The notes: a model not told the origin generated them from the letters alone. Shown: positions 8,744 through 36,912, numbered from the stretch's first letter. The stretch is DNA of 39,742 bases from Patescibacteria group bacterium (GCA_036171455.1 JAVHRB010000049.1:1-39742), one strand, 5' to 3'. A program made the numbers and translations.

Positions 8744-9298
8744 ATGGAAAAAATAGAAATTCGGGATCGAGAAAAATCCTATCTCGTTCTCAGTAAGGAC
8801 TTTGGGAAAATGCGTGGTTTCTATAAAGAAACACCAAAAACTACGCCGAGCGATATCGGAAATGTCATAGAAATCGCCATAGAAAGGAAATGAGAAACCA
8901 ATCATATCAAGTCCTGTCGTCCGAAATACGGATTTCACATATCAAATCTCGGTTTCGACGGCGTACACAAATTTCTCCTCATACTGGCGTTTTGTAAAAA
9001 GCAATTGCCCGATGGTGGGGGTGATGGAGCAATATATCGGGATCTGGTTTCTCTGGTCCAACTCTCGGAACATCACGATCCAAATATCCTCCTATTCCTC
9101 TGCGAAGCCCGACTCCTCTCACTGTTCCAACATTGGCCAGAACGATTGAAGAGTACCACTCTCGAAAAAATCAAAGGCCTTGCCGCCGAACACTCTCTCG
9201 AAGAACTTATTAAAATTCAAGGAATTCCTCAAGAACTCTACGAAACTACTCATCTTTACTTTCTACAATCGTATCCATGAACGAATTCATCTATATAA
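8744..9298 (+). CDS. hypothetical protein (weak RecO-like N-terminal OB-fold impression, not established)
   Basis: ATG 8744 (MEKIEIRDREKSYLVLSKDFGKMRGFYKE). Same frame as ORF 9005-9280. In-frame TGA at 8891-8893 and 9278-9280. TAA 9296-9298. Overlaps the pilD start by 22 nt. Confidence 0.5.
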
Positions 9299-10125
9299 CT
9301 ATCGGCATACTGTGAGCTATCCTCGGAAGCTTTGCTTCTGCCGTTATTCCACGAATCAAATACAAGCAGGATTTTGTCGCCGCACGAAGCGAATGTCCAA
9401 ATTGTCACCACCATTTGGGAGTTTTCGACCTATTCCCCATCTTTTCTTTTGTCTTTTTACTCGGAAAATGCCGATACTGCAAAGCAAAAATTCCTCCGTA
9501 TCATTTTCTTTTGGAATGAAGTATGGTCGGCGGATTTCTCCTCGTAGCCATGCGTTTTGTCGATATATCCGCAGTGGTTTTGGGCGATACAGCACAACTG
9601 GCACGACTCATATTCCTGCTGATTTCCATGTTTGTTACGGTGGTGTTTACGGCGTACGACCTCATGTACCTGGAAATTCCAGACGAGTTTATGATTCCTT
9701 TTCTCATTATCGCATTTTTCGTTTTGAGTGGAGCTCAATTTTTGCCGGCTGGTACATTTGAATATTTCATTGCTTTCAAAGATTATGAATACTTAAACGT
9801 AGTATTATATCAAGCATTTTTATGAGGCGTTCCCATCTTCCTTTTTTTCTATCTCCAACGGTTGGTTTCCAATGGAGAATGGATTGGTGGAGGCGATCTG
9901 CGAATCGCCATGTTTATGGGATTTGTCGGAGGGGCAAAAATCGCCTGGGTCTGACTTTTCCTTTCGTATATCATCGGAAGTGTCGTCGGGGTAGTGCTAC
10001 TCGCGATATACCGGAAACGATGAATGCAAATACCATTTTGACCATTTCTCGCCTGTGGCCTATGGGCGTCTATGGTGTGGTATGAACCCATGATTAGCTG
10101 GTATTTAAAATTATCATTAATATAA
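9277..10125 (+). CDS. pilD: prepilin peptidase / N-methyltransferase (peptidase A24, PilD family)
   Basis: ATG 9277. ECPNCHHHLGVFDLFPIFSFVFLLGKCRYCKAKIPPYHFLLE is the Cys4 N-terminal domain. YDLMYLEIPDE and GGGDLRIAMFMGFVGG are the two catalytic Asp regions. IPFGPFLACG is present. Six in-frame TGA, e.g. 10039-10041 = Gly of PFGPFL. TAA 10123-10125. Confidence 0.9.
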
Positions 10126-10761: not shown

Positions 10762-12213
10762 ATGCGACGCTGATGAACCAATAGAACGAGTCCTCTGTCC
10801 CTTGCCGTCCCAATAATCATAGCCGTTATCGTCTTTGTAATCATTGTCAAAGCGGTAATGAATCTCGGAGCCAGTAATGCTACTACCGAAGCTACCAAAG
10901 CTGCTGCTGGAACCGCCAGTGTGAATATCTTACCGGCAAAAGATGCCAAAGTAAGTATCTACATGTCTTCCGATTCTCAAAACGAAATCACCGGTCCAAC
11001 CAAAATGTTCCCAACCGACAAGATGGTACGGGTAACCAATGGAGAAAGCGAGGTAGAAATAGAAGGTTCTACAGCAAAAATCTATATCGAAACCCTGAGT
11101 GAGCTCTCCTACAAAGGAAAAGTTACCGAACAACAGACATTTGAACTCCTCAATGGGTACGTATGGATGGATACTCCGAACGGGGATGTGTCACTCAATC
11201 TCAAGTTTTTTTCAACAAAGTTTGCACCCGGGTCAATCATTATTGCGAGTCAGAACACGAGGGCAAGTAATTTGTACGTCATCAAAGGAGAAGCGGAAGT
11301 GAAAACTGAAGGAGGAACGGCTCGGGTAGCGAGTAGTCAGATGATTTCCCTCTTGCAATCCGAAACCAAAAATACCAACCTCGGAGACAAATTAGCCCCT
11401 TTGGATGATTTTGTAAAACAATCGAGCATTTTTAAACGAAAGGATGGGGCTACGCTATTGGCAGCTTCCGATTCTGCTACCGTCGATGCCAGCGGGGCAA
11501 TCACGGACAATTCGACGGTTCCAACGGTTTCCAATAAAGTGATTTCTATTACCTATCCAGAAGACCAGATGATGGTGGATAATGAGAAGATTTCCGTCGA
11601 AGGAAAAATTCTCAGCCCAAACGTCAAACGGCTCACGATTGGCAAGCAAGAAGCGAAGATTTTGGTAGATCAGAATACGTTCTCTATCAAGGAATATCTC
11701 CTGACTGATGTCGTGAATTTTATCAATTACCAAGCCTTTGATGCGGCTGGCGGAGTCGTGGAAACTGGCGTCGTAACAGTAAACCTCAACAAAAAGAAAG
11801 TAACTACGAAAAAACCTGACGTAATAAATTACCCAGTATCCAGCAAAGATTTCAAGGTACTTTTTCCGAGTGAAAATCCGTATAAGACTACCGATACAGC
11901 TGTCAAGATCCGAGGATCATTCGCGCCAGATTTGGTCAAATTCATAAAGGTCAATAATTACCAGCTCCAACAGTTCAAACAGTTCGGCACCAGTTGGACC
12001 TACAACGCGAGTATCGACAATGGGAATATGGAAGAAGGGGTAAACGAATACCTCATTACGTACTACGGTACCGATGATTCTATCCTCTACACGAGCAAGA
12101 TCTATATCGTAAAGGAAAAGGCAGCTCCCGTTGTACTACCATGACTCGAAACGCCAGCAACCGGAACCATTCCAAGTACTTCCACGGGCAGCGGAACTGG
12201 TTCAAATCTCTAA
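10762..12213 (+). CDS. membrane-anchored FecR-like / Ig-like domain protein
   Basis: ATG 10762 (MRR-G-G-TNRTSPLSLAVPIIIAVIVFVIIVKAV; TGA at 10771 and 10774, then a TM anchor). VRVTNGESEVEIEGSTAKIYIETLSELSYKG...LLNGYVWMDTPNGDVSLNLKFFSTKFAPGSIIIASQNTRASNLYVIKGEAEVKTEGG resembles the FecR beta-sandwich. The C-terminal half looks like Ig-like beta domains. TGA 12142-12144 is read through to TAA 12211-12213. Confidence 0.7.
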
Positions 12214-12223
12214 TTCCAAAACT

Positions 12224-12937
12224 ATGTCCTGCCGACGTTCCGACTTTGTAAAAATATTTTTGGACCACGGTGGAAACTCAATTATTGAAGTAATGGTGGT
12301 AGTTCTCGTAGTGACCATAGGAGTTGTTTGAGCCTATCAAATAACTTTCAAGGGAGTCACTCTCGCAGCTACGACAGAGAATCGCATCAAAGCGATAAAC
12401 ATAGCTCGGGAAGGATTGGAAATCGTAGAAAATATACGAGATACCAATTGGGTGAAACTTTCCAGCGATCTCAATGGGTGTTGGGATGTGATAAATTATG
12501 ACGTTACCTGTATCGGCAGCAGTACGGGAGCTAGTACCAACAAAATCGTTCCCGGTTCCTATATTACTTCGCAAAATGCCAACGGAACTTGGGTTCTCAC
12601 TGCGGTAGCTGGGCCCGTAGGAACTGGATCAGTATATCGCTCGAAATTTCCTGTATACCTCGATACCAATGGTCTGGTTACTCAGTCGGGATGATATACG
12701 GCACTCTGTACCCCAACAGTAACGAAAAATTGCAAGACTCCGTTTACCCGGGAACTCATAATCACTCGGCCGACGGATTATTCCACTATCGATATCGAAG
12801 CGAAGATTACCTGGACGGAAATTGGGAAAACCGATCCGTTTGAGGTAAGAATACCGTATACGCTGTTCAATTGGAAATACCAGTTCTATTCATTTCTCCA
12901 CCCTTTGATTTCTCATAGTAAATTGATTAGCGGATAA
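12224..12937 (+). CDS. type IV pilin-like protein (prepilin-type N-terminal cleavage/methylation signal), 237 aa
   Basis: ATG 12224. [40 protein letters not shown] has a short basic leader, Gly at -1, Glu at +5 and about 20 hydrophobic residues. This is followed by [17 protein letters not shown] and a Cys-containing globular domain. TGA at 12329 and 12692. TAA 12935-12937. Confidence 0.85.
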
Positions 12938-13683
12938 TATTCCTATACAATGCCAAAGTACTTTCGCTCTCTTTTTTAAGTAACAATCCGATTTATATCT
13001 CTTTCAAATGCTAATCTATGTTCTATAGAAGTTCCGATCTTAAAAAGATTTTTTTAAATCACGGTGGAAACTCGATTATTGAGGTAATGGTAGTTATCGT
13101 GGTAGTAACCATGGGAATTGTCGGAGCCTATCAAATAACTTCCAAAGGTATAGTTTTAGCGGCAACGACAGAAAACCGCATCAAAGCAATAAACATAGCT
13201 CGGGAAGGATTGGAAATCATAGAAAATATACGAGATACCAATTGGGTGAAACTTTCCAGCGATCTCAATGGGTGTTGGGATGTGATAAATTATGACGTTA
13301 CCTGTATCGGCAGCAGTACGGGAGCTAGTACCAACAAAATCGTTCCCGGTTCCTATATTACTTCGCAAAATGCCAACGGAACTTGGGTTCTCACTGCGGT
13401 AGCTGGGCCCGTAGGAACTGGATCAGTATATCGCTCGAAATTTCCTGTATACCTCGATACCAATGGTCTGGTTACTCAGTCGGGATGATATACGGCACTC
13501 TGTACCCCAACAGTAACAAAAAACTGCAAGACTCCGTTTACCCGGGAACTCATCATTACTCGTCCGACGGATTATTCCACTATCGATATCGAAGCGAAGA
13601 TTACCTGGACGGAACTTGGAAAAACCGAACCGTTTGAGGTAAAAATACCATATACCCTCTACAATTGGAAATACCAGTTCTAC
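12224..13683 (+). repeat. tandem duplication of a 666-nt pilin module (period 794 nt): 12224-12889 and 13018-13683
   Basis: The two copies are collinear from their ATGs with no indels. 12426-12723 is identical base for base to 13220-13517 (298 nt), bounded by G/A mismatches at 12425/13219 and 12724/13518. The 5' 200 nt is clearly more diverged. Confidence 0.9.
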
Positions 13684-16600
13684 ACCGACTCCACAGCTCC
13701 AATCGTAAATTGCGTAGCGAGTTGGAGTTCTTGCAATGCATCTTGTAAACAAACCTATTCCATAACAAATCCTGCAAGCGGAGGAGGTACGGCTTGTTTT
13801 GCAGCCAACGGTACGATTCGTGCTTGTACTTGAGGAGCTTGTATACCACCTGCACCATCATGCGAAGCAAATCCCGGCTATGCTAATGCGACCTACACGA
13901 CCGGAACACCTACGGTGGCAAACCAGTCTTGGCAGAATACAAACCCGACCGGTGCTTGTTATTACGCATGTACGGGGATTTATAGTGGAACGAGTTGTAA
14001 TTTGCTGACCATTACGGGAACTGACGCTATAGGGAGAAGTTGGGCCAATGGGACCTACGCACCTACTTGTAGCGACTATCGATTTCCAACGAATCCAAAA
14101 ACCTATTCTGGAAGCACGGGAAACGGAATTTATCAATTAGATCCTGCTGGATGAAGTCCATTCAAAGCCTATTGTGATATGACGACAGACGGAGGCGGAT
14201 GGACGGTCATAGCTTCGGATGGTCCGGGAAATACTACGCAAAGCCTTTCGGCCCTCTGACAGAATCCAACCCCAACGACTGCTGGAATGATTCCCTATTT
14301 TATCAATGGGAAACTCAAGGACTATTCTACGGCCATGAAAGTCGTGAGTATAGCAGATCCGACAAAAAATATGACCTATGATACGACTCCAACTTGGCTA
14401 TGAAGTACCTTGAGTTTGGCGAGTTCCGAATACGGATATCTGTACGCTGGAGCTAATGGTTTCGAATGAGGGGCCAATGGTTCTCATAAGTGTAACTTCT
14501 CCATCATCGTAATCGGAAACCAAGCTTGCAGTGCAGGCTGGTCCACCCCCTATCCGACCAACGGTGAAATTTATGGTGCCGTTAAAGGCAATACCATTCC
14601 TGCCTACGGCGCTATCGGGCACTCTTGGCAATTCGCAGGAAACGGTTATGCATTCAGACTCTGATGGACTATTCCCGATCCAGCTTACAGTTCATATTAC
14701 AATAACAGAGTATCGTCCTATCTCATGATTCGGAAAGATTCGACTTATACAACCATTGTCGGGGATAATGCCACCGGGAGAAAGTGGAGCGACGGGTCAT
14801 ATGCCAATACCTGCAATGACTACCGCAATCCGGTCGTACCAAAAAAGTACCTGGGGAAAACTGGTGATGGAATCTATTGGATAGACCCGGATGGGGCAGG
14901 GGCAAACGTGCCTTACAAAGCCTACTGTGATATGACGAACGACGGAGGAGGATGGACACTCGTCCTCAAAGCTGACGGAAGCCAGAATAATTTCTGATAC
15001 AACTCGGCCTACTGGACCAATGCCACCACTCTCAATCCTACAGCTTTTGATCATGATTCGACGGAATTCAAGAGCGAAGGCTTCGGTACGATGAAATTCT
15101 CCGAAGTACAATTGGAAATGGATACGGGAATCATCAAGAAAAAAATAGTCTTGCCTGCATCGGGAAATTCACTTCAAGAAATCTTCAAACGATGATATCA
15201 AAGTACTTCATTATGAAAGAGTACCTGGCTTTCCATGGTACCCGGTTCTTCCCTACAGCCGAACTGTAATATGGAAGGAATCAACGTGACACCGTCGGGT
15301 GGATCCCGAAAGGCACGTATCGGTTTTTCCGCAAATCAGGAAAATGACTGCAATACGAACGACAGCGTAATCGGAATATGACTTACGGATGCTGCCTATA
15401 CCACGGGTAACAAATGCGGAAGTACCTTATGTAGTGCATGAGTTGTGGATACCAGCTCCATCGGATACCTCTATGTTCGTTACGATAATTCATCGGTTTC
15501 CGTAATCGGAGATAATGCCGCAGGGAGAAAATGGTCAGATGGATCATCTGGGACCAGTTGTTACGACTACCGATATCCTACCAGTCCGAAAGCTTATGTT
15601 GGTAGCACTGGCGATGGGACATATTGGCTCGATCCGGACGGGGTCGGAGGCCCTGGAGCTCCATACAAAGCCTATTGCGATATGACGACGAATGGTGGAG
15701 GATGGACTTTGGTTCTCAAAACCGATGGAAATCTATCAACTTTTGCCTACAGTTCTGCTAATTGGACCAGCAATACCCCCCTCAATGAAACTTCCTTTGA
15801 TCATGATACGACGGAATTCAAAAGTAGTGGGTTCAGTACGATGAAATTCTCTGAGATACTTCTTGAAATGTCCACCGGGGGTGTTAAATGAACGGTTGCC
15901 ATACCGATGTTCTGAACTTCCCTCAAAGACATTTTCTCCGGATGATATCAAAATGCTGCTGCTGGAAAAAGCGCTTGGATGTCCAGTATTGCGGGATCGT
16001 CATTGCAACCTTACTGTAATATGGAATGAGCCAATGTGATTCCAACGTGAGGGGCTCGTGCTCGATTATGATTTACGAGCAATAATGAAAATGACTGTGG
16101 AACGAATGATAGTGTTATTTGAGTGGGATTCACGGGACCAACCACAGCCGGAAATCTCTGCTGAAGCACCCTTTGTAGCAATTGAAACGTTTCCACTCCA
16201 TCTTTCTGATACGTGTATATCCGTTTCAACAATGCTTCAGCGCTAACTGTTATGTGAGACAATCTCTCGGGCAGGACCTGGTCGAACGGCGACTTTGCCA
16301 AAAGCTGTTATGATTACAAATATCCTACTTATCCTAAAATTTACTTTTGAAGTACAGGAGATGGAACATACTGGATAGATCCCGATGGAGTCGGCGGAAC
16401 TTCAGCATTTAAAGCCTATTGCGATATGACAACGGACAGTGGTGGTTGGATGGTATTCCAAAAAAGATTTGATGGTAGTGTTGATTTCTATCGAAATTGG
16501 GCCGATTACAAATCCGGATTCGGGGATACCAATTCGGAACACTGGCTCTGAAACGACAAATTGAACGTTCTTACGAGCGGTTCGAACGTGAACGAACTCT

Positions 16601-18321
16601 ACGTAGCATTGAAAGCAGCTGACAATACAGAGGTCTATGCGAAATATTCCTATTTCCAAATGCAGGACGAGGCTGGAAAATACAAACTTTCCGTAGGGGG
16701 GTATACGGGAAATGCTGGAAACGCGTTTTGAGGACACGACGGATATAATTTTACGACTTACGACCAAGACAATGATACCTATTCTGGGAACTGCGCTACA
16801 TCGTTCCACGGTGCATGGTGGTATTCCGCTTGCCACGTATCCAATTTGAATGGGAAATACCTTCCGGGTACACATCTCAGTTATGCGGACGGAATGGAAT
16901 GGTCAACTTTCAGAGGACAATACGAAGGGATGATGGAAACGAAAATGATGATTCGACCGACACACACAGTAATGACCTATATCATAGGTAATGACACAAT
17001 CGGTAGAAAATGGTCCGACGGCACGTATGCGAGCAGTTGCAATACCTATAGGAATCCGACCGCTCCGAATATCTATTCCTGGGATACCGGCAATGGAAAC
17101 TATTGGATTGACGTGGACGGGACTGGTCCATTGGCACCTTTGCAAGTCTATTGCGACATGTTGTCTGATGGAGGATGATATACCTACTATGCCATAAATT
17201 CCGGATTGAGCACCAGCGCCTACACCGATAACGACAGTTGCAAGGTTCTTGGTTTGCAAATGGTAATCCCGAGATCCAAATCCCATTGGCTTTCCATGAC
17301 ATCGAAATACGATAGTTCGTATTTCGCTACCGTACCGGGAATCTATAGTCCGGTAGGTGGAACATCCTATACGTCGTGCATCATGCGCGACCATGCGGTA
17401 TACAGTACGTGATGCCCCGATTGGCAGGCGCTCGACGGTGGGCATTGGTGGATACGAGATACTGTTTTTAATGAACCGAATGGGGATTATACTGCCGGAT
17501 GTTGGCTCTCGACGTATGGATGAGTTACCGCGACTACCATCAACAATGACCAAATCATCAACGATTATAACTGCAATTATTCGACCACGAAATATATTTG
17601 TTCTACCAATGACAAGACACCTTCGAACATCATAGTAACAGGAAACGACACTACTGGAAGAAAGTGGTCAAACAATACCTATGCGACAAGTTGTAATACC
17701 TACAAGAATCCATCCGCGCCAAGGTTTTATACGGGCGACATCTGAGATTGATCCTATTGGATAGATCCGGACGGAATGGGGACTGGAGCATTGCAATTCA
17801 AAACCTATTGCGATATGACCACGGACGGGGGCGGATGGACATTAGTAGGAAGAAGCGGAAACGCTTGTACCAACAGTGCCGACTATGGATTTTTCAAAAA
17901 CACTCTGACCGACCCTTCTGACATAGCCGAATGTTACTCAGCAGACGTGAGCAAATTGGGGTTCAGCAAATTGAAATTTTGAGGGTTCAGCGATACGGGC
18001 AATTTTGCCATTACACGAGGTTTGACTTTTTCAATGTCGGCATCAACGTTAATGAACGCGGCCAACAACGAATCTACTGCCGCTTGGAATTTTTCTTCAA
18101 CGGCTTGAACGGGCTTGGATTGTGGAACATGAAAGACTTGGAATAGATGAGTTTCTACCGCCATTAACAATACCTGATTTCCTTTTGCGTGTACTCATGC
18201 GGGTTGTTCATGACAATTGAACTGGACTGGAATCGGAAATACGAACAATTATTTCGAGTCATGCTATCTTCCTACCGACAATAGAGATTTATGACCGTAT
18301 TATTCCGTTTGGGTACAGTAG
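13018..18321 (+). CDS. giant type IV pilin-like adhesin (1767 aa): prepilin signal + pilin domain + TSP1-like Cys module + six fibrinogen-like YCDM..GGGW lectin modules
   Basis: ATG 13018 is preceded by in-frame TAA 13012-13014. Checked line by line, the frame is free of TAA/TAG up to TAG 18319-18321 and holds 38 in-frame TGA by my count. Residues 1-222 parallel the upstream pilin ([29 protein letters not shown]). Each downstream module carries GR[KS]W..G.YA..C..Y..P and G.G.YW.D.DG.....P...YCDM..DGGG. Confidence 0.85.
13711..13842 (+). other. thrombospondin type-1-like six-Cys module inside the giant pilin
   Basis: [45 protein letters not shown] compares with the TSP1 pattern WSxWSxCSxxCG...GGxxC......C....C. 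Confidence 0.5.
14005..18318 (+). repeat. six tandem protein-level modules (about 650-750 nt each) of the giant pilin; starts near 14005, 14749, 15499, 16243, 16975 and 17629
   Basis: YCDM codons occur at about 14170, 14923, 15670, 16417, 17149 and 17803. Modules 2 and 3 are close paralogues by eye over their whole length. The other modules share only the N-terminal 70-80 residues. Confidence 0.8.
16243..16977 (+). other. complete fibrinogen-related domain (FReD / fibrinogen C-terminal globular domain), module 4 of the giant pilin
   Basis: [68 protein letters not shown]...[16 protein letters not shown]...[37 protein letters not shown]. All canonical FReD motifs appear in order. Confidence 0.85.
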
Positions 18322-34379: not shown

Positions 34380-36860
34380 TTAATTATAATATATTGACGT
34401 ATACGCAACATGTTGTTCATACCATAAGCAATCGATTTTCTTCCAAGTCATCCCAAAATTGCTATACTGAAAAAAATTAAACTGAGCATCCACGCAGTTT
34501 GAATTAGCCTGACTTGCGGGAATCGTACCGCTTACCGTAGAACTGGATGTAAAAGCTACTAGTTGATTTGCAGTTGCTGACTGAAAATTACCCGTGCAAG
34601 TACGTCAAGCTCATAGGTTTGAATAATACGATACAGTCGCCGTAGAATAAAAGATGGCTTGTGAAAATCCGCCTACCGAAAAACCATTACAATTCGCTGG
34701 TTTCGTATTCGTGCAATTATATGCACTAAACGGAACAAGGTCTATGGTTTGGCTGGCACTGCATCTATTTCCCGTATCGTATGTGTATGGATCTCCGCCA
34801 GTCGTATTATCCCAACTCCCATTGCAATCCTCATCCACTAATGGAGTTGAACTCGCGCTTCCCGTAATTCCACTACACTTTAAGTGTATGGGGAACTCTC
34901 CTAGAAAAGAACCGTCGCTCACTCGCACAAGCCTCACGGGTACATCGCTCCATGCGCCAATCAATCCACCGCTTGGAAGCCAGACCTGTGGGTGTGAGCT
35001 AGCATCACAGTTATATGTCTGAATATCGGTCCATGTAGTCCCGAGATAATATTGAATCTTACATCCTCCAGCTCCTCCATTCCCAGAACCTGCAATCCAG
35101 TCAACAACGAATTCTCGGTGATTGGGAGTATGTGTAAGCATAAGTCCACTCGGATTCTTCTGAGGACTGGCACATGCCGCAACACTCGTACTTCCTACTG
35201 GACTCACCAGGCTTCCCCCACAAGCGGTCGGATTTCCGCTCGCTTGTGGACAGTAACTGTTTGCCGGGCATATCGTCTGTGTAGCACTCGTGCTTCCGGC
35301 TGCACAATAGGATCCCGCGCTACAAACCGTCTGACTCGTAGCTCCTACAACGTTCGTATAGTATCCAGCATCCGTAGTAGATTGTACTCCGCCCACGCAA
35401 TACGTTCCTGCCACACATTGGGTCTGTGCAGTATTCGTTGTCCCTCCATTGTTTGGACTCGCCCAGTAACCCGCTGTGACAGGCTTACAGCTCGTCTGAG
35501 CCGTCAGATCTTGGTAGGTTCCTATTGCACAAGGTGTTTGAGCCTCAAGTCCAGCACTTGCAACCGCGAATCCCGCGCTTGCCGCTACGCAAGCATTGCT
35601 CCCGTTCCAATAGTATCCTGCCTGACACTGGAACTTGCAGACTCCCTCCGTAGTAGAATATCCCCAAGCTGCCGTTCCCTGAGGTCCATTGACCTGACTG
35701 TTTGGCGGAGCGGCTCCCGTACACGAATCCAGTGCGCACGCCCAAATCCCGCTCGCCACGTAGTTCGAATCGCAGGCCGTACTCACACTTCCGTAACTCA
35801 AAGTCCCGTTGCTACAGCTTGCAGTAACATTCCCAGTCCCGTTCGTAATGGGAGTTCCATAGGTAGCAGAAGCACCATGTCCCAAGCTCGCTATCGTAAT
35901 CCCACTCCAGGTCGCAGCCGTACATCCCACGGAAGCGCTCGAACTACTTATTACCGTACTTCCTCCGAGTTGAGTCTTGACAATGGTTGCCCCATACGAA
36001 ATGAGTGCGGTACTTCCTGTAGTATTCAGGAGTGTAGTAATGTTCTGGTTACTTCCGATATTTGCTCCCGAATACACGTTCTGCAGAGCGGTAACCATAT
36101 TGGTTATATCGGTATCGTTCGCAGGAAGAGTTCCTCCGGAATACACTACGACACTCGGATTGAACGAGTTCGGATTCAAGAGTGCCTTTCCATGAAAGAG
36201 AAGAGTTCCCGACAAAGAAGCAATGCTGAGCGCACTTCCGGTCAGAACCCCGCTATTCGTGACGATGCTCGGAACCGCGAGCACGTATACCAAGCCTCCG
36301 GTAGTAGTTTTTGCGGTGAGTCCATTGTAGTTTCCTCGTATGTACGCGATAGTCGGATCTCACGATGCGGCGTAGGCGGAGGCAATGAGGAGGTTCCGCT
36401 CCAGGGAAGCACTGATATCTCCTTCATATTCTGCTTTAATCTGATAGGCTTTCCCTTCCGCAAGCGAAGAGTAAACATATTCAGAATTCTTGAGCGGATC
36501 AGTAGGCTTCTGATTGATTCCTCCTCCCATGACGGTCGATTTGAGATAGTTTACTACCGATGATCCCACCGTTCCCTGGTTCCATACCACCCCTCAGGAG
36601 TACGTTACCGCAAAGGCGTTGTCCGGAGACGGATAGGACCCTGCCGTGATGATGCTGATATCCAGGGATTTGGAGATGTTCGCTGTATCCCCGACCCGGT
36701 CGGAATCCCGAGCTCGAGAAGAATACCCCCCGATAGAAATGAACCCGATAGCCCCGAGAATCGCAAGTATCGTGATAACGACGATGAGCTCTACGAGCGT
36801 AAAACCGAGAAGGAATTTCCGTAATAGTTTAAGTTCACCTATTTTTTTAGTGTGGTTCAT
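34380..36860 (-). CDS. second giant type IV pilin-like protein (826 aa) with Cys-rich CxxGxY repeats and a C-terminal Cys-rich globular region
   Basis: ATG 36858-36860 (MNHTKKIGELKLLRKFLLG/FTLVELIVVITILAILGAIGFISIGGY, a canonical G/FTLxE prepilin signal). ORFs 36594-36884, 36360-36590 and 34611-36293 share one frame, joined by TGA 36594 and 36360. TGA 34611-34613 is read through to TAA 34380-34382. Repeats are QTPCAIGTYQDLTAQTSCKPVTAGYW, TQCVAGTYCVGG and QTVCSAGSYCAAGSTSATQTICPANSYCPQ (about 35170-35925). Confidence 0.82.
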
Positions 36861-36883
36861 AGGAAAAAGGTAAATTTTGAGCA

Positions 36884-36912
36884 ATTATATGATATTTTCG
36901 GGGGGGGCAAGT
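36884..36912 (-). promoter_or_regulatory. putative sigma70-type promoter of the second pilin gene containing a C8 (G8 on + strand) homopolymer
   Basis: The minus strand reads CTTGCCCCCCCCGAAAATATCATATAATTGC. TATAAT lies at 36884-36889, about 24 nt upstream of the ATG. TTGCCC lies at 36905-36910. The homopolymer at 36900-36907 spans the -35 element and spacer. The spacer is 15 nt as assembled. Confidence 0.4.

Follow-up and report, generated by a model that had tools for sequence, protein, structure and literature searches.

Closest described systems

Gene conversion between pilin paralogues occurs in Neisseria, where many silent, 5'-truncated pilS cassettes donate variable segments to one expressed pilE gene in a system that includes a G4 motif with an sRNA. 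In Pseudomonas, a PilV-type minor pilin is part of the FimU-PilVWXE tip/priming complex, which presents PilY1, a separate non-pilin adhesin. Modular type IV minor pilins, such as Streptococcus sanguinis PilB (with a vWA module), PilC (with a lectin module) and ETEC CofB (PMC8179133, PMC9934059), are a described class that has been modelled to fit only at the pilus tip, and CPR examples were included in the survey of these proteins (PMC8179133). The Salmonella paralogues tufA and tufB, which lie 762 kb apart in inverted orientation, are converted over their full length by RecA-type non-reciprocal transfer; conversion increases ~1000-fold without mismatch repair, and its tracts of ~500 nt are stopped by diverged sequence (PMC5485169).

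Here we describe a tandem pair of pilin genes in a CPR bacterium, a short gene for a 237-aa pilin and a giant gene for a 1767-aa protein, which arose by an old tandem duplication, probably followed by repeated gene conversion, with the bare copy upstream and the giant carrier downstream. Like modular minor pilins, the giant has an N-terminal pilin module, a short linker and binding modules, and tip-only polymerisation is predicted for this architecture (PMC8179133). It differs in that its carrier, a PilV-like module of 222 aa, has a bare counterpart gene immediately upstream, and in its cargo of ~1545 aa, far above the 860-aa extreme quoted for the class (PMC8179133). As in tufA/tufB, a pair of paralogues within one genome shares an unbroken identical tract a few hundred nucleotides long, for which RecA-type non-reciprocal transfer would account (PMC5485169); unlike the tuf genes, the copies are in tandem, only the middle is homogenised and one copy lies inside a much longer gene. 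The likeness to pilE/pilS is that gene conversion would act between pilin paralogues, whereas there are only two copies, both with a start and a leader, and no G4 motif occurs in 11.5-14 kb. As in Pseudomonas, a PilV-type minor pilin is paired, at the level of genes, with a large adhesin; unlike there, the adhesin array is fused to the minor pilin, and the TIGR02523 cut-off is not reached. Gene conversion at this locus is a known, ordinary kind of process, and the pilin pair opens no new question.

Genome, genetic code and gene order

The window is one whole contig of 39,742 nt from a source genome (G000) of 1.27 Mb in 103 contigs that is 95% complete. Close protein relatives recovered by protein search carry the label Candidatus Gracilibacteria, and the organism is a Gracilibacteria (CPR) bacterium that translates TGA as glycine. 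No long frames appear in the region under the standard code, and both pilin frames are open only if TGA encodes Gly (table 25, code 25). Both contain in-frame TGA codons; at codon 36 the TGA of the short gene is aligned with GGA in the giant copy, showing that the codon stands for glycine. Gene callers run without code 25 miss the short pilin. In a sister record, an antisense 278-aa ORF was called where the short pilin lies (L057 9063-9899, - strand, equivalent to window 12080-12916, - strand), and the short pilin itself is missing from the protein collection that includes the gene calls of this record.

With table 25, the + strand order is prepilin peptidase, a 178-aa protein, a 483-aa anchored protein, the 237-aa pilin, a spacer and the 1767-aa protein. 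Two PKD-repeat membrane proteins on the opposite strand converge on this gene string. The main features are as follows.

9277-10125, + strand: prepilin peptidase (PilD, peptidase A24), heading the same-strand gene string; Pfam A24_N_bact E 1.7e-23, Peptidase_A24 E 7.8e-07
10762-12213, + strand: 483-aa N-terminally anchored protein (P0003), the pilin's conserved upstream partner, from translation
12224-12937, + strand: short pilin gene, 237 aa (code 25)
12938-13017, no strand: spacer of 80 nt between the two pilin genes
13018-18321, + strand: giant modular pilin, 1767 aa, with 38 TGA codons read as Gly

The stop codon of P0003, which has weak Glucodextran_B-like Ig similarity, lies 10 nt ahead of the pilin ATG. 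Seven T2SSE-family ATPase matches occur in the genome, on contigs other than the window. The 80-nt spacer contains no terminator and its promoter matches are at chance level only; because neither a terminator nor a convincing promoter separates the two pilin genes, they are likely to be co-transcribed.

The short pilin and the giant modular pilin

Both pilin copies carry the prepilin motif GG/NSIIEV (HGG/NSIIEVMVV..., in which the slash marks the cleavage point) and have the features of a class III signal peptide, with a short basic leader ending in Gly, a hydrophobic alpha-1N segment and Glu at +5. The genome encodes a prepilin peptidase and assembly ATPases, in keeping with type IV pilins. 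The N_methyl family (PF07963, IPR012902) scores 22 bits in the giant copy, over its cut-off of 21.2, and 17.3-17.5 bits in the short copy, under it. TIGR02523 (PilV equivalog) matches at E 6e-7, with 30 bits against a cut-off of 52.2 and over the N-terminal 55 positions only, so we speak of a PilV-like N-terminus and not of PilV. In an AF2 model of the short protein (pLDDT 85.6), a helix of 59 residues (20-78) precedes five to six strands of beta-sheet. A Foldseek comparison with the PDB gave nothing at E <= 0.001, with no pilin among the top 50, and a profile search of PDB sequences had MshA as its sole match (E 0.89). By motif, context and modelled topology, not by family membership, the short protein is a predicted PilV-like minor pilin with a putative pilin fold. 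Position +1 is Asn (GNSIIEV; window 12224-12240 and homologues) in nearly all of the 43 aligned homologues, where canonical pilins have Phe or Met.

The giant protein matches Pfam Fibrinogen_C (E 1e-90) and, in six stretches, NCBIfam GGGWT_bact (E 6e-85). Together with the pilin module at residues 1-222, this is the make-up of a modular pilin sensu Raynaud et al. 2021. Beyond the pilin module it has the following parts.

13684-14001, + strand: Cys-rich linker with one TSP1-like repeat
14002-18318, + strand: six modules of ~220-250 aa each with a YCDM..GGGW motif; motif period 657-753 nt

The linker is matched by a TSP1-array protein (P0057, E 1e-63) and weakly by Pfam TSP1_spondin (E 0.04). 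Only one of the six modules contains a complete fibrinogen-related domain. The TSP1-like repeat and the six lectin-type (GGGWT/fibrinogen-related) modules would be displayed on the pilin carrier. A T7 run at 13049-13055, within the codons for the giant's leader peptide (the short gene has T5 there), is the sole homopolymer of seven or more within 12.1-13.1 kb and is too short for a slippage tract.

Mosaic identity between the two copies

In an ungapped comparison, the short gene (12224-12937) and the first 222 codons of the giant are collinear at a constant offset of 794 nt, and 12426-12723 equals 13220-13517 exactly over 298 nt, as the earlier note had claimed. The diverged first ~200 nt and the scattered 3' changes that it had also described correspond to measured identities of 79% and 92%. 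The two copies are divided as follows.

12224-12425, + strand: copy 1, old 5' stratum (leader and alpha-1 helix); 42 mismatches in 202 nt, 79% identity with 13018-13219
12426-12723, + strand: copy 1 of the identical 298-nt block, residues 68-167, start of the globular head
12724-12888, + strand: copy 1, intermediate 3' stratum (last beta-strands); 13 mismatches in 165 nt, 92% identity with 13518-13682
12889-12937, + strand: private tail of the short gene, 15 codons and a stop
13018-13683, + strand: pilin module copy 2, codons 1-222 of the giant, which holds block copy 13220-13517 and sites 13446, 13452 and 13459

Chance placement does not produce this mosaic. When the 55 differences were distributed at random over 665 sites, an identical run of 298 or more appeared in 0 of 200,000 placements, and an analytic bound gives P ~4e-13 for the run length; third codon positions alone also gave an equal run in 0 of 200,000 placements. 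Nei-Gojobori estimates separate three strata, with dS 0.87, dN 0.11 and dN/dS 0.13 for codons 1-67, dS 0.013 for codons 68-167, and dS 0.31, dN 0.03 and dN/dS 0.10 for codons 168-222. Synonymous changes make up 25 of 41 in codons 1-67 (16 are non-synonymous) and 9 of 13 in the 3' part, and both flanks of the block are under purifying selection. These strata, together with purifying selection on both sides, cannot be explained by constraint on the protein or by positive selection. Within otherwise diverged paralogues, an identical tract that is significantly long and includes synonymous sites is the pattern of concerted evolution. The proposal that the mosaic is a gene-conversion signature is upheld by the dS values, by the run-length probability and by the same mosaic in a second assembly. 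Across the genome there are just these two copies; other matches are distant pilins that align over the N-terminal helix only.

The same data bear on two other explanations. The idea of a recent duplication whose ends changed rapidly through positive selection, the middle being merely unchanged so far, could draw on the larger number of derived amino acids in the N-terminal part of the giant (seven, vs two in the short copy, against outgroups). It is nevertheless extremely unlikely because the end differences are mostly synonymous, with dN/dS ~0.1, the synonymous-site strata contradict it and the non-coding flanks of the copies are unrecognisable. Maintenance of block identity by selection on the nucleotides themselves, for example through an embedded RNA or regulatory element, is scarcely credible: the block has no Rfam match at E <= 1, its RNA fold is no better than those of shuffles (z +0.45), and orthologues vary freely at synonymous sites within it.

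Identity is at chance upstream of ~12212 and downstream of 12888 (8-15 matches per 30 nt). The earlier note had homology stopping exactly at a 16-codon tail of the short gene. That holds for clear homology, but a weak trace continues ~45 nt into the tail with an indel (P ~0.03), and the tail has 15 codons plus a stop. Positions 12915-12932 match giant positions 13702-13719 at 16 of 18 nt (shuffle P ~0.03), and the tail may be what is left, in a shifted frame, of the linker start seen in the giant. The spacer has no significant similarity to the 3' end of P0003 (P 0.33); with this result and so weak a trace in the tail (P 0.03), following the duplication into its flanks gave no precise tandem junction. 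Because clear homology ends at the natural C-terminus of the family, its sharp end is best understood as the border of a selected coding module, around which the non-coding DNA of an old duplication has decayed.

Orthologues and age of the duplication

Full-length homologues of 200-230 aa occur in all 41 of the 41 nearest genomes. Within the order, the pilin was found in 178 of 201 genomes (E <= 1e-15) and is single-copy in 176 of these 178; two matches occur only in G000 and in one ambiguous genome, whose second match is a fragment at a contig end. The copy-number check in related genomes that had been proposed for this pair finds it absent from 200 of them, the pilin being normally single-copy. 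For the short pilin, the best identity was 72% in a search of 5.8 billion proteins and 45% in a JGI metagenome scan, and exact look-ups of the code-11, code-4 and code-25 products returned nothing besides the sister record of the giant.

Gene order is conserved along with the pilin. A P0003 homologue lies directly upstream of it in L006, L007, L009, L010, L011, L012 and L037, and the order of anchored protein, 10-nt gap, pilin and convergent PKD gene is common to G000, L006, L007 and L037. The closest orthologue is that of L037, a Logan contig with ~71% nucleotide identity, in which 10 nt separate the pilin from the upstream gene, just as they do in the window. Compared with L037, G000 has 5.7 kb extra between the end of the pilin and the PKD gene. 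In all segments each G000 copy resembles the other more than it does the L037 orthologue, which indicates a lineage-specific duplication; that it is nonetheless old follows from the decay of its non-coding flanks. Because the pilin is single-copy across the order and always follows the 483-aa protein, the short gene is identified as the positional orthologue of the order's single-copy PilV-like minor pilin, and the giant as a lineage-specific paralogue. The short gene keeps the ancestral position and also more ancestral residues in its N-terminal part.

The pilins of relatives end one to four residues after ...NWKYQFY (...NWKYQFY[K/R]D, then stop). The single pilin of L037 continues past FY (1307-1457) into FYSDSSTATGPAPVAVNC, which resembles 12 residues of the giant and may be what remains of a C-terminal extension that was lost. 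A form with a linker may therefore be older than the split, and either the bare or the fused gene may have come first. The L037 sequence past FY, SDSSTATGPAPVAVNC..., resembles the first part of the giant's linker and overlaps the convergent PKD gene at its end. In a sister species of the genus (L010, G002:C25, 1453-3300) the single orthologue has 615 aa; its C-terminal part is a beta-propeller-like module (SBBP / Reg_prop repeat) attached at the same ...NWK..Y fusion point, and no separate bare copy is present there. A different module at the same fusion point points to the pilin as a recurrent carrier.

A second assembly and the resolution of the block

The second member of the giant protein's 90% cluster comes from GCA_036170835.1, where it lies on a contig equal in length to that of the window but recorded in the opposite orientation. 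It is 99.8% identical to the window, with 51 substitutions and 0 indels over 25.3 kb. The two-gene arrangement and the mosaic reported from the window recur in this assembly, with all 55 paralogue-specific sites unchanged. Within the duplicated region, window and sibling differ only by 12652 T>G, 12658 C>T and 12665 A>G, repeated at 13446, 13452 and 13459. The sibling state, CCG/TAT/GCC, agrees with the outgroup L037, which makes the window state the derived one in both copies.

In three pairs of G000 contigs the ends overlap by exactly 55 nt, pointing to a de Bruijn assembly with k=55. The three paired changes are either concerted evolution since the strain split or a bubble collapsed by a k=55 assembler, two processes that look alike here. 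Differences between copies could have been collapsed in the block interior (~12481-12668, the inner ~188 nt), whereas at either edge of the block k-mers phase the outer 55 nt, which are truly identical. On either reading the block is at least 99% identical between flanks of 79% and 92%, and the tandem order is secure because a unique 129-nt path of tail plus spacer links the copies. Short-read assemblies cannot certify perfect identity inside repeats longer than k.

Perfect identity could thus be partly a product of assembly, with a few real differences merged and a different allele chosen in each assembly, in which case the tandem and the mosaic would still be real and only the words 'perfect' and 'ongoing' would fall. 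We regard this as somewhat unlikely. The 55-nt contig overlaps speak for it, as does the spacing of 12652, 12658 and 12665, whose distance of 59-72 nt from the closest paralogue-specific position (12724) is slightly more than k; a density of three changes in 14 nt equals that of old paralogue divergence, and the two assemblies differ at precisely these three sites in both copies. Against it, the phased outer 55 nt on each side contain no differences, the unique tail-plus-spacer path shows that the tandem order does not come from a false join, both assemblies have the same structure in records whose differing orientation indicates separate assembly runs, and strain-level SNP clusters also occur elsewhere in the locus.

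Programmed variation is very unlikely, whether as recombination across the block that switches between a two-gene and a one-gene state or with the short gene as a pilS-like donor for the giant. Direct repeats of 298 nt at a distance of 794 nt are a substrate for RecA-dependent deletion, such a deletion would leave a chimeric giant gene in frame, and strain variation is concentrated in the giant (5.7 SNPs per kb vs 1.05 per kb nearby). However, both of the only two copies are complete, each with its own start codon and leader, and the part exchanged is identical rather than variable. The region has no G4 motif (11.5-14 kb), long homopolymer or simple repeat, and inverted repeats or a recombinase were not noted. 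The same two-gene form is present in both assemblies, and the 200 related genomes do not have the pair. Judging from the repeats, deletion between them must occur at some low rate, with no sign of its use as a switch.

The giant holds 30 of the 51 substitutions between the two assemblies. They cluster at 15537-15861 (10, all at third positions), 17549-17578 (three, all non-synonymous) and 17703-17787 (10), and look like short tracts imported from diverged alleles and not from paralogues in this genome. Copying of cluster 15537-15861 from the paralogous module 750 nt upstream was considered and rejected, since five of the 10 sites match, which is the chance level. The variant 25-mers of this cluster occur nowhere else in the genome.

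Duplication followed by probable gene conversion

The history that we consider probable, old duplication with repeated conversion, would have run as follows. A pilin reading frame of ~0.67 kb next to the prepilin peptidase was duplicated in tandem long ago in this lineage; the upstream copy would have stayed a bare 237-aa pilin, and the downstream copy is the N-terminal carrier of the 1767-aa modular pilin. RecA-type non-reciprocal recombination would then repeatedly have copied one paralogue onto the other, so that the central 298 nt were homogenised most recently and the 3' quarter earlier, with the 5' third (leader and core helix) long unhomogenised and now too diverged to be drawn in easily. 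The conversion events themselves we infer from the sequence pattern. The genome encodes RecA (E 4e-135), the recombination machinery that such transfer calls for, and MutS (domain V) was not found in this 95%-complete genome, which apparently has no mismatch repair. By analogy, the behaviour of the tuf genes fits conversion that stays within the stretch where the copies are most alike and is blocked by the 5' third, now 80% identical. The locus offers a clean, textbook-style case of partial concerted evolution with three age strata, and suggests how a tiny, host-dependent bacterium could have built a very large adhesin by copying a minor pilin, making the copy a lectin carrier and keeping the bare copy.

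Function of the pair and other pilins of the genome

Both proteins would be cleaved by PilD and enter the same position of a pilus-priming or tip complex, and the giant would be able to sit only at the pilus tip. The earlier suggestion of a stalk subunit with a matching tip adhesin finds no support as worded: the short gene belongs to a single-copy PilV-like minor pilin conserved across the order, and a separate family of ~26 pilins with the canonical GFTLVELIVVI helix provides better stalk candidates. The pair is more likely the bare form and the adhesin-loaded form of the same minor-pilin carrier. A further reading, which we hold to be quite unlikely, is that the bare pilin and the lectin giant are interchangeable in one tip slot, with conversion keeping the partner-contacting head identical and RecA-dependent deletion and re-duplication varying the display. 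If so, deletion or re-duplication across the block would yield cells that show only the giant adhesin, or more of it, and a host-dependent CPR bacterium would have a simple recombinational route to vary its attachment organelle.

The ~26 pilins of this separate family share a nearly invariant GFTLVELIVVITILAILGTIGF helix, and some also carry GGGW modules. Their nearly invariant mature N-terminus is GFTLVELIVVITILAILGTIGFISIQGYSSSA, and their C-terminal parts range from 80 to >950 aa (examples are C1:117, C8:21683, C63:1700, C100, C84 and window 34380-36884, - strand). At the DNA level, mean identity over those 96 nt is only ~69%, so that the sameness of the N-termini is attributed to selection and not to conversion. 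Many of these genes lie 100-250 nt from contig ends, which indicates that the family breaks the assembly. At least three of the ~26 have a GGGW/fibrinogen-type motif.
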